From Solimonas sp. K1W22B-7 (GTDB lineage: Bacteria > Pseudomonadota > Gammaproteobacteria > Nevskiales > Nevskiaceae), in contig NZ_CP031704.1 of the NCBI RefSeq assembly GCF_003428335.1, positions 4,474,071-4,538,070 on the forward strand: DNA of 64,000 bases. The letters run 5' to 3'. The notes under the pieces are model-generated. The model was not told the origin of the DNA and did not search any database. It saw only the letters and a list, made by a program, of their open reading frames with translations. The number at the start of each line of letters is the position of its first letter. Position 1 is the first letter of the stretch. The translations under genes were made by a program, and so were the position numbers. This document shows, in pieces, positions 30,445 to 35,289 of the stretch.

Positions 30445-30487
30445 TGTTCGTTCATGGATAACAGGGGAAAACCTTGAAAAATATTTC

Positions 30488-30516
30488 TTGCAAGCGCTTT
30501 TGCGCAGGCGTACAGT
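30488..30516 (+). promoter_or_regulatory. Sigma70-like promoter (TTGCAA-17 bp-TACAGT) followed by CGCAAT-c-ATTGCG palindrome
   Basis: Near-consensus -35/-10 with 17-bp spacer in an AT-richer stretch. A 13-bp palindrome at 30527-30539 lies at the predicted +1 region. Confidence 0.5.
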
Positions 30517-30522
30517 CCGCGC

Positions 30523-30779
30523 GCTTCGCAATCATTGCGATGAAAAAATTTTCGGGCACACAGGCTTCCATGACCATCTTGTCCAGGACCCAGGCAACGA
30601 GCATGCAACGGCATCACAGCCGTGGCGGCGTCGCGCCTGCGCTCCGGCCTGAACGGACCTTGGGCAATACCGCCAGCCTGACGCTTATCGACTGATCCAT
30701 CCCTTGCAGGGAGATCGGTCACCCCGATCTCCCGTGGAATGCGAACCCCCGGGAGCCTTGCTACCGGGGGTTTTTCTTT
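30523..30779 (+). ncRNA. Candidate small transcript (sRNA and/or leaderless 51-aa ORF) bounded by promoter and intrinsic terminator
   Basis: Promoter at 30488-30516. Stable hairpin at 30703-30729. GC-rich stem plus U-tract at 30745-30779. Contains the ORF at 30540..30695, which has no SD. Confidence 0.35.
30745..30779 (+). terminator. Rho-independent terminator
   Basis: CCCCCGGGAGCCTTGCTACCGGGGGTTTTTCTTT. Confidence 0.7.
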
Positions 30780-30985
30780 GCGTTCGCGGTGGAGAAACAG
30801 GATTCGGCGACACAGGTCGCCAAACAGATTGGCGCCTCGGCAAGAGGCGCCAATAGGGGGCCGATGATGACGGCGCCATGCAGCGGTGCAGGCTCGCGAG
30901 TCCTGCCCGGTGCGCCCGGCTGTGCCGGTGCGTATGCCGCGTGTCGTGCGACGTCGATCCCTCACAGGAAGCTTTGATCTTCCTT

Positions 30986-31058
30986 TGGAAGCTAGCTCAT
31001 TGGATAGAGCAGGTGGTTTTCAACCATCCGGTAACGGGTTCGACTCCCGTGCTTTCGC
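30986..31058 (+). tRNA. tRNA-Glu(UUC)-like element with aberrant acceptor stem (possible pseudogene or att remnant)
   Basis: Perfect D-arm (GCTC-ATTGGATA-GAGC), anticodon arm with loop TTTTCAA (U33, anticodon UUC, A37), T-arm ACGGG-TTCGACT-CCCGT. Acceptor stem needs U1•G72 and G3•U70. No proper CCA (GCTTTCG-C-ACCA). Confidence 0.35.
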
Positions 31059-31433
31059 ACCAGGTCCGAAAGGACACACATCGGGGACGCCCCGTGTGTG
31101 ACGGCAACACCGGCAAAGGCTCGTCCGATGCCGGCCTGTCCTCACGCAGCGGCGCGATGGCCGGGGCACTGTCTTCCGACGCGAAGGCGGCGCGGCACAA
31201 GGCTCGATCGCCATCCAGCGCAGCGGATGGCTTCATGCCGGAACCGCGCCGCCCGACCCGGGGATCGCGGTGCCTCCCCTGACACGTCGTCAGGGGTGTC
31301 CCCTTCTTATTCGCCTGCGCGAGCAGGCAAGGCTGCCGCGTTGCGGGAGACCAGAGCGATCCGCGCCAGGCCGGCGAGCGCGGTGGAGCAGCGGAGCCGG
31401 CGGAAACGAGGCCAGAAAAAAGGAGTGCCTCCC

Positions 31434-32567
31434 ATGATGAGCATTTTTGGAATGAAGCGTATCGTCATCGGCGACGGCGAGCGTGGACTGCTGTACCGCA
31501 ACCGCCGCTTCGAGCGCGTGCTGTCCCCGGGCGTGACCTGGATGTGGAGCCCGTTCGTGGCCGCCGACCTGCGCGTAGCCGACATCACCCGCCCGGAATA
31601 CGAGGGCAAGGACACGGACATGCTGGTGGAGCGCCTGGGCGCGAAGCTGGAGCGCGATTTCGTGCTCGCCGACGTCGGCACCGACGAGGTCGGCCTGGTG
31701 TCGAAGAACGGCAAGCTCGAGGACGTGCTGGTCCCCGGCGCCCGCAAGCTGTACTGGAAGGGCCCGGTGTCCGTCGCCGTGCAGCGCCTGCCCTTGGGGG
31801 AGAGCCTGGAACTGGAACCGGCGGTGGCCAAGCGCCTGCGCCAGACCGGCGTGCTCGACCGCTACGCGCTGAGCACCACGGTACCGGCGGAGTCGGCGGG
31901 CCTGCTGTTCGTCGACGGCAAGCTGCAGCGCGTGCTGCAGCCGGGTGCCTACGCCTTCTGGAACTTCCAGAAGAACGTCGGCGTCGAGCTGATCGAGCTG
32001 CGCCTGCAGTCCCTGGAGGTGTCGGGCCAGGAACTGCTGACCAAGGACAAGGTCAGCCTGCGCGTGAACCTGTCGGCGACGATCCGCGTCAGCGATCCGG
32101 TGGCGGCCCGCACCAAGGTGGCGAAGTACATCGACTACCTGTACCGCGAGCTGCAGTTCGGCCTGCGCCGTTCGGTCGGCGTGAAGACGCTGGACGAACT
32201 GCTGTCGGACAAGACGGCGATGGACGGCGAGATTTTCGCCTACGTCGCCGGCCGCGTGCGCGAGCTGGGTGTCGAGCTGCTGGGCGTGGGCGTCAAGGAC
32301 CTGATCCTGCCGGGTGAGATGAAGGACATCCTCAACGGCCTGGTGCAGGCCGAGAAGGCGGCCCAGGCCAATGTCATCCGCCGCCGCGAGGAGGCCAACG
32401 CGACGCGCTCGCTGCTGAACACGGCGCGCCTGATCGAAGAGAGCCCGACGCTGCTGCGCCTGAAGGAGCTGGAGGCGCTGGAGAAGGTGACCGAGAAGAT
32501 CGACAAGCTGACGGTCTTCGGTGGACTGGACGGTGTGCTCAAGCAGCTGGTGACGCTGCGCCCGTAG
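31434..32567 (+). CDS. SPFH/Band-7 domain protein (stomatin/flotillin-like)
   Basis: ATG at 31434 after AAAGGAG. SPFH-domain blocks and a coiled-coil C-terminus. Confidence 0.8.
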   Translation: MMSIFGMKRIVIGDGERGLLYRNRRFERVLSPGVTWMWSPFVAADLRVADITRPEYEGKDTDMLVERLGAKLERDFVLADVGTDEVGLVSKNGKLEDVLVPGARKLYWKGPVSVAVQRLPLGESLELEPAVAKRLRQTGVLDRYALSTTVPAESAGLLFVDGKLQRVLQPGAYAFWNFQKNVGVELIELRLQSLEVSGQELLTKDKVSLRVNLSATIRVSDPVAARTKVAKYIDYLYRELQFGLRRSVGVKTLDELLSDKTAMDGEIFAYVAGRVRELGVELLGVGVKDLILPGEMKDILNGLVQAEKAAQANVIRRREEANATRSLLNTARLIEESPTLLRLKELEALEKVTEKIDKLTVFGGLDGVLKQLVTLRP

Positions 32568-32846: not shown

Positions 32847-34040
32847 ATGAGCATCAAGCAGGAAATCACCACCGGCAGCGTGCCGGTGAAGATCTGGACC
32901 GACGACGTCGACGAGGCCTCGCGCAAGCAGCTGGCGAACATTGCCGGCCTGCCGTTCGTGCACCACCACGTCGCCGCGATGCCGGACGTGCATCTGGGCA
33001 TCGGCGCGACCGTGGGCTCGGTGATCGCGACGCGCCAGGCGATCGTGCCTGCTGCGGTGGGCGTGGACATCGGCTGCGGCATGGCCGCGGCGCGTACCAC
33101 GCTGACTGCCGGGGACCTGGACGAGAAGCGTCTCAACAACGTCTTCCGCCAGATCAGCCGCGACGTGCCGGTGGGCCGCGACCAGCATCGTGGCGACCGT
33201 GCGCCGACCGAGGCGGCTGCCGCCTTCGACCCGGGCCTGAACGCGATCCTGGAGAAGCACCCGAAGCTGGAGTCGCGCAAGGACCCGAACGGCTGGATCT
33301 GTCAGCTGGGCAGCCTGGGTGGCGGCAACCACTTCATCGAACTGTGCCTGGATGAGGCCGGCCGCGTGTGGGTGATGCTGCACTCGGGTAGCCGCGGTAT
33401 CGGCAACCGCATCGGCACCTACTTCATCGAGCGCGCCCGCGAGAAGGCGCTGCGCATGGACCGCCAGCTGCCGGACATCGACCTGGCCTGGCTGGACGAG
33501 GGTTCGCCGGACTTCGACGACTATGTCGAGGCGGTGGGCTGGGCGCAGGACTACGCGCGCATGAATCGCGAGGTGATGCTGGGCCTGGTGCTGGCGGCGA
33601 TGCGCCGTCACCTGCGTCCGTTCGAGACCGTGGCGGAGGCGGTGAACTGCCACCACAACTACGTCTCGCGCGAGCATCACTACGAGGCCGACGTCTGGGT
33701 GACCCGCAAGGGCGCGATCCGCGCCGGCGAGGGCCAGCTGGGCATCATCCCGGGCAGCATGGGCGCCAAGAGCTTCATCGTGCGCGGCAAGGGCAACCCG
33801 GAAAGCTTCGAGTCCTGCTCGCACGGCGCCGGCCGCCGCATGAGCCGCACGCAGGCGCAGAAGAAGTACACCGCTACCGACCTGGTGCAGCAGACCGAGG
33901 GCGTGGTCTGCCGCAAGGACGCCGGCGTGGTCGACGAGATTCCGGCGGCGTACAAGGACATCGATGAAGTGATGGCCAACCAGACGGACCTGGTGGAGGT
34001 GGTGCACACGCTGAAGCAGGTGATGTGTGTGAAGGGGTGA
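32847..34040 (+). CDS. rtcB: RNA-splicing ligase RtcB (3'-phosphate/5'-OH RNA ligase)
   Basis: HHHVAAMPDVHLGIGATVGSV, GCGMA, NHF and CHHNY motifs of RtcB; ~397 aa. Confidence 0.85.
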   Translation: MSIKQEITTGSVPVKIWTDDVDEASRKQLANIAGLPFVHHHVAAMPDVHLGIGATVGSVIATRQAIVPAAVGVDIGCGMAAARTTLTAGDLDEKRLNNVFRQISRDVPVGRDQHRGDRAPTEAAAAFDPGLNAILEKHPKLESRKDPNGWICQLGSLGGGNHFIELCLDEAGRVWVMLHSGSRGIGNRIGTYFIERAREKALRMDRQLPDIDLAWLDEGSPDFDDYVEAVGWAQDYARMNREVMLGLVLAAMRRHLRPFETVAEAVNCHHNYVSREHHYEADVWVTRKGAIRAGEGQLGIIPGSMGAKSFIVRGKGNPESFESCSHGAGRRMSRTQAQKKYTATDLVQQTEGVVCRKDAGVVDEIPAAYKDIDEVMANQTDLVEVVHTLKQVMCVKG

Positions 34041-34184
34041 ATCGCCGCGCTTATGCGATGACTAAATGTCATCGCATGCGGCGATTCACGCCCGGCCATG
34101 GATGGCCGGGCCGGGGCTAGATCAGGAAGTGAAGTCCCGCCATGGATGGCGCCCCCGCTTTAGGCACAAGACAGGAGGAAGAAA

Positions 34185-35289
34185 GTTGAGTAAGAGCAGA
34201 AAGTTAAAGCTGCGAAAGCTTCGGCAGAAGAAACTTCGACAGCAAGATCGCCGGGCCAATGCATCATCTAGGACATCGAAAGGCGCTACCACAAGCACTA
34301 AGGTGTCCGTTGATCGCTTGGGGCCCTCTGGCGTGCCCGGTGTTCTATTGATTGTTCCTGAGTTTCCAGATCGGAAAATTTCTGACCAAGAAAAATTCAA
34401 GGATAAAAGCAAGCGAATGTTCAAGTTAAAGGCGCTGCTGGGGAAGCACTCCTCAAGAGAAGGAGGTATCTCCACCATCATGACTAGTGAAGATGGGGAT
34501 TCATTTATCGTTGCAGGCTATGAAGACACTGCGGGCATGCTTCATACGTCCGTAGGGAAGATGATTCTGAGACACAACGCAAAGAAGGAGCTTGCGCTGG
34601 TAGAGTTCGATTGCAATTCAACCTCCATCCATGAAGCGAAGCACCTGTTCTTAAAGGCGCTTACTCCCTTTCTTGATCATCTGAGCTTCTTGGCAAACAT
34701 CCCGCTACACATCGTGAGAGTGGGATGCCTAGACACAGTTCATCATATTGAATCCGTGGATTACGTTGGACCTCATGCCAATGTACAACTGAATCCACAC
34801 GCCTCCTCCATGGAGGAAGAGTTGATTCCTGTGTATGCGCTATACAGGGAAGCAAAAAACAATCCAAGCTCGCTGTACAAGTTTTTGTGCTACTACAAGA
34901 TTCTTGAAGGAATCTATAAGTCTTTACGACCAGCGCTCATGTCGCGTGCAAAGGATAAGGGTATTTCTATAGCGATGCACAAAGAGGTAGTGCCGAAATT
35001 GCATGACCCGCTTCCGGACCACGCTGAACTAGAGGAAAGGCAAATTAAGGAAGTTTTTAACGGCCGATTTCGTGAAGACTTTAGAAACCAGGCGGCCCAC
35101 TTCCTACTAGGCGAAGGCCTCCCGTTGAATGTCAGCGACTCGGAGATCTATTCCAAGTTCTCTAGGGAGTTGCCATTGATTGAAGTGTGCGTACGCATAG
35201 CGATGGAGACACATCGCGAGTATTTGCAAGACTATCAAAAGAAAGTTGCCAGCTTTCACGCGCAGACGGTCTCATCGCCTTCCGCCTAG
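34185..35289 (+). CDS. Low-GC hypothetical protein with HEPN-like Rx4H motif (Abi/defence-like)
   Basis: AGGAGG + 7 nt + TTG start. GC much lower than flanks. Lys-rich N-terminus, FRNQAAHF (R-x4-H) near the C-terminus. No further recognisable motifs. Confidence 0.4.

Follow-up and report, generated by a model that had tools for sequence, protein, structure and literature searches.

Introduction

RtcB is, to our knowledge, a universal RNA ligase; its substrates in bacteria, and its regulation there, are understood only for a few enterobacteria, and we know of no regulator described for the arrangement in which it is accompanied by Band-7 and a predicted tRNA mimic. Agents that impair translation are among the inducers of rtcBA in E. 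coli. Here we describe an RNA element at 30488-30787 of the window, that is, of the whole 64,000-nucleotide (nt) stretch of Solimonas sp. K1W22B-7 that was analysed (contig NZ_CP031704.1, positions 4,474,071 to 4,538,070 of the forward strand), whose numbering is used throughout. The element is the 5' end of a locus of this kind, and we argue that, with a probability of roughly 0.6, it is the cis-acting 5' leader of an operon made up of a non-coding RNA (ncRNA), a tRNA mimic and the SPFH and RtcB genes, most likely operating as a five-segment, ribosome-dependent transcription attenuator.

Several described systems come close to it. In enterobacteria the operons rsr-yrlBA-rtcBA or rtcBA are controlled by RtcR, a sigma-54 activator with a CARF domain, and are induced via damaged tRNAs (PMC7790460). 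There, as here, RNA repair by RtcB is regulated and damage to the translation apparatus is proposed as the signal, but a protein activator that binds tRNA fragments takes the place of what in the window would be a cis-acting RNA leader. [quoted passage not shown] The window carries Band-7, RtcB and a tRNA-like RNA side by side, and relatives carry them in the same order; the quoted passage names only the tRNA-like RNA, with neither a leader, an upstream open reading frame (uORF) and a terminator nor a structured RNA of 200-350 nt.

With the amino-acid leader-peptide attenuators (trpL, hisL, pheL and the ilvBNC uORF) the element shares a promoter-proximal short open reading frame (ORF) of unconstrained product, overlapping hairpins, a terminator, and a stop codon placed such that the terminating ribosome decides which hairpin forms. 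Unlike them it has no run of regulatory codons and cannot report on one amino acid; its ORF is long (33-50 codons) and lacks a strong Shine-Dalgarno sequence; it has five segments rather than four and an extra helix across the U-tract; with no ribosome present, read-through and not super-attenuation is predicted; and what it precedes is an RNA-repair and ncRNA operon. Closer in its signal is toiL, upstream of topAI-yjhQ in E. coli, which is described as sensing ribosome-targeting antibiotics for a toxin-antitoxin transcript (PMC12121999). In that account toiL, like the antibiotic-responsive resistance leaders, is a uORF that reports general stalling and activates the genes downstream, whereas the output here would be a choice between intrinsic terminator and antiterminator ahead of Band-7 and RtcB. 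Our literature search for an rtcB leader, attenuator or uORF, or for RNA elements of Band-7/RtcB loci, found nothing relevant.

Alternative Helices and Their Covariation

The comparison is based on 82 related loci, 76 with enough upstream sequence and 6 further genomes, taken from Solimonas, Panacagrimonas and Lysobacter genomes and from about 75 metagenome contigs; individual loci are cited by our L numbers. Most of them were found via the hairpin P1 itself. Five segments of the leader (A, B, C, E and F) can form mutually exclusive helices, namely A:B, B:C (which is P1), C:E (the antiterminator, AT) and E:F (the terminator, T), to which a further helix, LR, is added at the 3' end.

30690-30697, + strand: segment A, GACUGAUC, which holds the stop codon UGA (30693-95) of the uORF, termed uORF1
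30709-30733, + strand: P1 (B:C), GGGAGAUCGG-UCACC-CCGAUCUCCC, a 10-bp hairpin with a free energy (dG) of -19.4
30729-37 with 30748-55, + strand: AT (C:E), CUCCCG-U-GG:CC-CGGGAG, -11.8 kcal/mol on its own and predicted in the nascent RNA
30743-30779, + strand: T (E:F), GAACCCCCGG...CCGGGGGUUU followed by the U-tract UUUUUCUUU, dG -19.3
30780-30787, + strand: 3' arm of LR, GCGUUCGC, which pairs with GCGAAC at 30741-46 and loops out the U-tract

An earlier note on this DNA had pointed to a stable hairpin, GGGAGATCGG-TCACC-CCGATCTCCC, just before an intrinsic terminator, GAACCCCCGG...CCGGGGGTTTTTCTTT. Both are present, at 30709-33 and 30743-79 respectively, and both are conserved, the terminator stem being flagged in part by a terminator scan.

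Pairing was counted on 35 sequences. Paired cells make up 94-100% for P1, T, A:B, AT and LR, and compensated pairs occur in T, AT and LR. Segment A pairs with GAUCGGUC (30713-20), that is, with the 5' arm of P1 and the first two bases of its loop (97% paired), and in the window A:B is extended by UCCCU (30700-04) pairing with AGGGA (30708-12). The antiterminator reads CCCGAGG:CCUCGGG in the main family of relatives (94% paired), UCCGAGG:CCUCGGA in L009 and L067, and CCUUCCG:CGGAAGG in L090 and L092; because these variants, and that of Solimonas, are matched pair for pair, segment E can be said to follow segment C in four lineages. Window AT overlaps the 3' arm of P1 by 5 nt and the 5' arm of the terminator by 5 nt. 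Column-wise counting had made the antiterminator appear degenerate in the window; this is ruled out by folding, which gives a shifted 8-bp AT that makes use of the P1 3' arm. The family terminator helix is 13 bp long, 96% paired and altered on both sides at 5 pairs, and a GC-rich stem of 10-14 bp with an immediate run of 5-9 U is conserved everywhere among the relatives.

The helix LR joins GCGAAC(GCC) before the terminator stem (30741-46) to (GGC)GUUCGC after the U-tract (30782-87). It is 96% paired with 2 pairs altered on both sides, has the variants GCGAAAGC/GCUUUCGC in L067 and GCAAAC/GUUUGC in L029, and, for the window as for L090-L093, belongs to the minimum free energy (MFE) structure of the read-through RNA. 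Since LR needs sequence past the U-tract, and constant termination could not select for it, the read-through RNA is, as judged from this covariation, under selection and functional.

Lineages that were not selected through P1 are decisive in establishing these pairings. P1 is identical in Solimonas genomes reached via RsgA instead of P1, and also in Lysobacter terrae. In Panacagrimonas (L090) P1 becomes GGAAGGUCGG-UACU-CCGACCUUCC, with GAUC changed to GGUC in B and CCGAUC to CCGACC in C; segment A changes with them from ACUGAUC to ACUGACC and pairs with GGUCGGU, and E (CGGAAGG) matches C (CCUUCCG). In the metagenome-assembled genome (MAG) L092, P1 is GGAAGGGCC-GGUCGA-GGCCCUUCC and E/F is CGGAAGG/CCUUCCG, such that F equals C and the two would compete for E, both carrying CCUUCCG. 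The first loop base of P1 is changed from U to C in L091 and L093, and there A has G for A at the partner position (GGCUGAAC/GGUCGGAC with GAUCGGCC), while in L009 and L067 a one-base shift in C is matched in E and in F. Each of the four competing helices is thus backed by covariation, and predicted A:B pairing accounts for two of the five 'invariant' bases in the P1 loop. A likeness of the P1 loop to the 3' end of 16S rRNA, 7/11 by eye, was considered and found unconvincing.

A Retained Reading Frame with a Neutral Peptide

30570-30695, + strand: uORF1, 41 codons and UGA (MTILSRTQATSMQRHHSRGGVAPALRPERTLGNTASLTLID), with the conserved start codon ATG 30570
30608-30623, + strand: P2, a hairpin within uORF1, ACGGC-AUCACA-GCCGU, with a homologous hairpin in relatives

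The earlier note had proposed a 51-aa ORF opening at ATG 30540, possibly leaderless. This ORF exists, as an in-frame extension to 51 codons, but ATG 30540 is not kept among Solimonas relatives and the conserved frame is the 41-codon one from ATG 30570. That neither ATG has a strong Shine-Dalgarno sequence was correctly noted, the duplexes with the anti-Shine-Dalgarno sequence amounting to -3.4 and +1.9 kcal/mol for the two start codons, compared with -8.2 for the SPFH gene. An ATG ORF of 33-50 codons whose stop lies 10-21 nt before P1 is found at 76 of 76 loci and in 6 of 6 further genomes, 82 of 82 in all. Dinucleotide shuffles of the leader interior yield such an ORF in 0.24 (24%) of cases, and the 46 non-redundant sequences represent 16 clades with differing ORF lengths; at 0.24 per shuffled sequence over 16 clades, retention by chance is very unlikely. 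The frame misses the UGA of GACUGAUC in 14 of the 46 sequences and ends there at a UAA or UAG a few nt upstream.

What is retained is the frame and not the peptide. Over 20 independent pairs of sequences, substitutions are spread evenly over the three codon positions (87/84/87), and 46 of 189 differing codons are synonymous, a fraction of 0.243 that is equal to the 0.243 expected for a random single-base change, from which it follows that the peptide is not under selection. Among four Solimonas-clade sequences, codon differences are 1 synonymous versus 22-23 non-synonymous. Length and sequence vary freely between clades, no conserved codon run is seen in peptides that differ so freely, and the product has no Pfam match. 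The substitution pattern therefore indicates that uORF1 is selected as an ORF while its peptide is neutral. Setting the conservation of the ORF against that of the structure, as the earlier note had suggested, gives a neutral peptide beside covarying helices, and this speaks against its option of a leaderless micro-protein. It is true that the ORF is always present, that gene callers annotate it as a gene of 40-42 aa in L091, L093 and L094, and that its base composition (GC1/2/3 = 0.64/0.51/0.75, i.e. GC3 > GC1 > GC2) gives a weak coding-like signal. Nevertheless, a functional micro-protein of 41-51 aa is rejected on the substitution pattern and must be regarded as highly improbable, the more so as the ORF carries covarying hairpins. 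The stems of P2 in relatives include CAUCGC/GCGAUG, GUCGCGC/GCGCGAC, GCAGC/GCUGC and CACGC/GCGUG.

Folding Energetics

All fold predictions are equilibrium models. In the window the naked nascent RNA, extending to the terminator loop, has A:B together with AT as its MFE structure (-29.2 to -30.2 kcal/mol), and the complete RNA folds as P1 with T or LR. A:B with AT is likewise predicted for the naked nascent RNA of L092 and in 14 of 46 relatives, window included. When 25 nt around the stop codon are blocked, mimicking a terminating ribosome, P1 is predicted in 44 of 46. In the main family P1 takes two closing C-G pairs from AT, by which AT falls from -11.5 to -5.7 kcal/mol, as compared with -23.9 for T. 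P1 with T and P1 with LR are nearly isoenergetic (-39.7 vs -38.5).

Promoter and 5' End of the Unit

30488-30516, + strand: sigma-70-type promoter, -35 TTGCAA (30488-93), 17-nt spacer, -10 TACAGT (30511-16)
30526-30540, + strand: P0, the 5'-terminal hairpin (U)CGCAAU-C-AUUGCG(A)

The promoter is flanked by an A/T-rich stretch on its 5' side and by the GC-rich discriminator CCGCGCG on its 3' side, and from the sequence its +1 is predicted at about 30522-30524. It had been called near-consensus, which overstates the case: the hexamers match at 4/6 and 4/6, 8/12 in total, below the cut-off of 9/12 of the motif scan, in whose listing the promoter is consequently absent. It is credible because of its conservation among relatives and not because of its consensus match. 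The pattern TTGC-N2-N17-TAnnGT/TAnnCT, with a spacer of exactly 17 nt and a GC-rich discriminator, recurs in about 45 of the 46 non-redundant relatives, so that the unit does have a promoter of its own, independent of the gene upstream. In the window (30466-30523) and in relatives, the A/T-rich sequence upstream of the -35 and a GC-rich discriminator, GTnCGCGC, recall promoters of stable RNAs that are responsive to growth rate and ppGpp.

The patch described in the earlier note as locally AT-richer is there, with a GC content of 0.45-0.55 across 30450-30600 against about 0.70 in the flanks, as is the palindrome CGCAAT-c-ATTGCG at the predicted +1 (30527-39), which forms P0. A hairpin at this position is found in about 37 of 46 relatives, with stems such as UCGCC/GGCGA, CGCAUC/GAUGCG, CGGCC/GGCCG and GCCCG/CGGGC, and its mean dG is -7.1 compared with -4.2 in shuffles. 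The 257-nt unit as a whole folds better than shuffled sequences (z = -2.9). It lies in a gap of 990 nt between the end of rsgA (30444) and the start of the next protein gene, that of the Band-7/SPFH protein (31434).

Distribution and Operon Context

30788-30985, + strand: conserved structured ncRNA, aligned in 41 relatives, many pairs with 3-6 pair types
30986-31058, + strand: tRNA mimic, Rfam tRNA 50 bits, ARAGORN Glu-UUC; the window copy ends ...CACCA
31434-32567, + strand: Band-7/SPFH ('slipin') gene, Pfam Band_7 E = 1.6e-31
32847-34040, + strand: RtcB RNA ligase gene, Pfam RtcB E = 1.4e-129

The order leader, structured ncRNA, one or two tRNA mimics, Band-7/SPFH and usually RtcB, all on the same strand, is constant among the relatives. 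Where 1.3 kb or more of downstream sequence is available, the unit is followed on its own strand by the ncRNA, the tRNA mimic or mimics and Band-7/SPFH at 49 of 50 loci, and where 2.7 kb or more is available RtcB follows at 40 of 43. The unit can hence not be described as stand-alone, as the earlier note had it. An exact search of metagenomes with the 21-nt core of P1, which occurs as a single copy in the window (0 expected), gave at least 80 loci, and among the matches listed 77 of 80 carry the whole ordered module. Six further genomes reached via the Band-7 protein (Lysobacter terrae, a Panacagrimonas MAG, a Solimonas MAG and 3 other assemblies) all have it. The RsgA relatives, at 76-79% identity, are Solimonas genomes and MAGs, and in the 3 Solimonas-clade loci reached via RsgA the entire intergenic region is shared at about 75% identity.

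Upstream the gene varies, being rsgA in the window, PFK in L094 and a LuxR-type regulator in many contigs; a DesK/LuxR two-component pair, a methyltransferase and an AMP-binding enzyme are also seen. The position downstream of rsgA therefore describes some Solimonas genomes only, and conservation is not restricted to the rsgA 3' untranslated region (UTR): the unit is kept beside varying upstream genes. An element of the rsgA 3' UTR is ruled out, given that L094, a Solimonas MAG, has PFK upstream and that the rsgA of Solimonas fluminis lacks the element. In the latter (L007, 7020-7130) rsgA stands directly before rtcB, and leader, ncRNA, tRNA mimic and SPFH are all missing; L068 has everything from leader to SPFH and then queA, with no rtcB; and L040 and L077 have the leader and a truncated ncRNA directly before rtcB, with no SPFH. 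From these arrangements the module appears to be gained and lost in blocks. A mobile or phage origin was also considered and rejected, the P1 core having no matches in viral contigs and being present once in the window.

The 3,337-nt contig L032 (Ga0255243_1004961, Solimonas clade) has its first base about 13 nt past the predicted start of the leader transcript and ends 7 nt past a perfect hairpin that immediately follows the rtcB stop codon. It has the appearance of a full-length transcript from leader to rtcB and possibly is one, provided that the sample is a metatranscriptome. Contig ends cannot be used as transcript ends in general: only L032 fits, other short contigs ending at unrelated places. 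About 130 nt before the SPFH start of the window (31285-31310) lies a hairpin GGGG-UGU-CCCC followed by UUCUUAUU, and the motif GUCAGGGGyGUyUCCmCUU occurs at the same place in distant relatives; this could be a second conditional terminator.

Proposed Mechanism and Alternatives

In the mechanism that we propose, transcription would start near 30523 and uORF1 (30570-30695) would be translated. Segment A, which contains the stop codon, can pair with B, B alternatively with C to give P1, C alternatively with E to give AT, and E alternatively with F to give T. In the OFF state a ribosome close behind the polymerase would reach the stop codon and cover A, such that P1 forms, C is locked and T forms; transcription would then end at about 30775-30779, leaving a leader RNA of about 255 nt. 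In the ON state, with the ribosome lagging, stalled or absent, A:B would form first, C would be free to pair with E, formation of T would be delayed and the polymerase would continue into the ncRNA, the tRNA mimic and SPFH-RtcB. The comparison shows the conservation, the linkage to the operon, the retained but neutral ORF and the competing helices with their covariation; translation of uORF1, the choice of fold by ribosome position, the polarity (stalling meaning ON) and expression of SPFH-RtcB from the leader promoter are all inferred. Because its peptide is unconstrained and shows no conserved codons, uORF1 would report on translation capacity in general, as lowered by damaged tRNA or rRNA, ribotoxins or antibiotics, and not on a single amino acid. 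Such a translation-sensing logic fits the operon, as RtcB reseals broken tRNA and rRNA.

A number of observations weigh against this interpretation. The Shine-Dalgarno complementarity of uORF1 is weak, with a mean of -2.0 kcal/mol versus -1.3 in control windows and values of -4 or below in 8 of 46 sequences, the 25 nt upstream being A-rich and G-poor. At equilibrium the naked nascent RNA is predicted to fold as P1 in 32 of 46 relatives, and since equilibrium folding favors P1 in these, a kinetic switch would be required. In the main family no more than 2 nt are shared by P1 and AT, and in the window a partial AT persists in the MFE structure even with the stop region masked. The invariance of P1 among the relatives is partly an ascertainment bias, P1 having served as the search probe, and the constant 3' bases of its loop, ACC, are not explained by the pairing scheme and possibly reflect a bound factor. 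Finally, a second hairpin with a U-rich tail lies before SPFH (31285-31310), and a separate SPFH-RtcB promoter is possible.

The constant loop bases lead naturally to an antitermination mechanism of the riboswitch-like or ribonucleic antiterminator (RAT)-like kind, in which a factor on P1 and AT would choose between AT and T and the uORF would be secondary or untranslated; candidates for this factor are the SPFH or RtcB protein or an RNA, be it a fragment of damaged tRNA, the ncRNA or the tRNA mimic. P1, including most of its loop, is invariant across lineages whose proteins are 60-75% identical, AT alone is weak in the main family (-5.7 to -11.5 vs -23.9 for T), as protein-stabilised antiterminators are, uORF1 lacks a strong Shine-Dalgarno sequence, and elsewhere rtcBA is under RtcR, which responds to damaged tRNAs (PMC7790460). 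We nonetheless consider a factor of this sort unlikely, if worth keeping in mind, because it would leave unexplained both an ATG ORF with its stop 10-21 nt before P1 in 82 of 82 cases and the covariation of the stop-bearing segment A with B, because two of the five loop bases are explained by A:B (loop U to C matched by A to G), and because P1 does vary, with compensation, in L090 and L092. Distinctly unlikely is a gene for a trans-acting small RNA (sRNA), in which the RNA of about 255 nt would itself be the product, the downstream genes would have their own promoter and the neighborhood would reflect shared function only. Its own conserved promoter, the 5' hairpin, the strong terminator after a stable hairpin and the better-than-shuffled folding are what one would expect of such a gene, and terminated attenuator RNAs can act in trans, as rnTrpL is reported to do in Sinorhizobium (PMC7968998). 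A covarying LR, however, requires sequence past the U-tract, and an AT maintained by covariation in four lineages would be pointless for a constitutive terminator; moreover, the stretch from the terminator to the ncRNA showed no conserved motif resembling a promoter, the leader is retained directly before rtcB in L040 and L077 despite the loss of other parts, and L032 spans leader to rtcB end. An sRNA of about 260 nt is possible only as a by-product, namely the terminated leader, which would be comparable to rnTrpL as a leader RNA with a possible second life (PMC7968998).

The near equality in energy of P1 with LR and P1 with T suggests yet another reading, an element of RNA processing or stability in which the 'terminator' is the top of an LR-closed hairpin cut by, for example, RNase III or RNase E, so that read-through is constitutive and cleavage releases or protects the ncRNA and tRNA mimics. 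Downstream tRNA mimics do imply processing of a long precursor by RNase P/Z-type activities, and LR is immediately followed, in at least 20 of 46 relatives, by a second small ORF that has a strong Shine-Dalgarno sequence. Yet a GC-rich stem of 10-14 bp with 5-9 U, conserved everywhere, would not be called for, and the A:B/P1/AT chain and the uORF would have no role, which makes this reading very unlikely. The ribosome-dependent attenuator thus remains the interpretation that we favor.

Downstream RNAs and Further Observations

The second small ORF, of 12-23 codons, starts 5-12 nt after the LR arm (for example L030, 3428-3472) and is absent in the window. It ends nearly always at the UGA of CC(C/U)-UGA-(A/G)GCAUCCGG, the sequence that forms the first helix of the RNA downstream. 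The ncRNA itself folds into a hairpin, AUUGGCGCC...GGCGCCAAU, and into a three-way junction that includes CCGGUGCGCCCGGC..UGCCGG..GCGUAUGCCG, and in the main family has an extra 5' domain (GAAGCAUCCGG / GGAUGCUUCGG) that is lacking in Solimonas.

The tRNA mimic at 30986-31058 is probably the predicted b7a-tRNA. In close relatives its anticodon loop differs or has 6 nt, ARAGORN then reporting 'tRNA-???': the loop is UUUUCAA in the window, UCGUGAA in L032 and a 6-nt UUCCAA or UCCCAA in L003 and L001, while cloverleaf and acceptor stem covary. Because the anticodon loop differs among close relatives the mimic cannot be a decoding tRNA. Tandem mimics are seen in L016 (9557-9700), L030 (3729-3870) and most main-family loci; the first ends in CCA and has a GNRA or UUCG tetraloop in place of the anticodon loop, and the second has an acceptor stem of only 4 bp and an anticodon that shifts between near-identical relatives (UGG, GUU, CAU, UGU and others).

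The window and 18 related loci were compared with Rfam 15, both at the gathering threshold and at E<=10, as the earlier note had suggested for the unit. Only tRNA passes; the leader and the ncRNA match no family above threshold. Sub-threshold scores of the leader are at chance level (His_leader 21.8/49, NsiR1 23.1/39, anti-hemB 18.6/49.5 and sX8 15.9/50) and these weak matches are due to the terminator and hairpin shape. The Y RNA YrlA (RF02553) is likewise a tRNA-mimicking RNA beside RtcB, a comparison that concerns the downstream mimics and not the leader; identity with YrlA was rejected, since pairs of mimics across the relatives reach 24-32 bits against a gathering threshold of 69 and there is no match in the window. 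No TROVE (Rsr/Ro60) protein was found among the neighboring proteins scanned, nor was an RtcR or RtcA gene seen beside the loci (the window neighbors, L030/L070 and the annotated L089-L094).

The SPFH protein of the window matches 'slipin family protein [Solimonas sp. K1W22B-7]' at 100% identity. Right after the rtcB stop is a strong hairpin, 34041-34088, AUCGCCGC..AUGCGAUGAC-UAAA-UGUCAUCGCAU..GCGGCGAU; ATG 34066, which opens a MauJ-like ORF (34066-35289), sits within it, so that this start is doubtful. In lineages with DesK/LuxR upstream (L030 5994-8981, L070 8425-9687 and L068) the operon is followed by queA and tgt, genes of queuosine tRNA modification, a position that may be coincidental.

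Implications

The combination of RtcB, Band-7 and a predicted tRNA mimic is carried by many soil and water proteobacteria (Solimonas, Panacagrimonas, Lysobacter and uncultured lineages), and the 'b7a-tRNA' is one part of a much larger conserved non-coding array, of which we found neither an Rfam family nor a literature description for the leader, uORF1 and ncRNA. A more tentative idea, which we hold to be rather doubtful, is that the non-coding array of roughly 1.3 kb ahead of Band-7/RtcB amounts to a self-contained device for the surveillance of RNA damage in bacteria without RtcR. The attenuator would gauge the health of translation and open the way to a structured RNA and to tRNA mimics with free-running anticodon loops, whose function would be that of bait, decoy or cofactor towards ribotoxins or RtcB, the repair proteins following; besides this, P1 might be where a damaged RNA or an operon product docks, which would make a two-input switch. 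Should the ribosome model be wrong, there would still be a widespread, strongly structured and unannotated regulatory RNA without an Rfam family. If the model is true, it would offer, for comparison, an attenuator whose segments are odd in number and in which absence of translation means ON, and the expression of RNA repair in these bacteria would be tied directly to the performance of the ribosome, a concrete and testable form of control.

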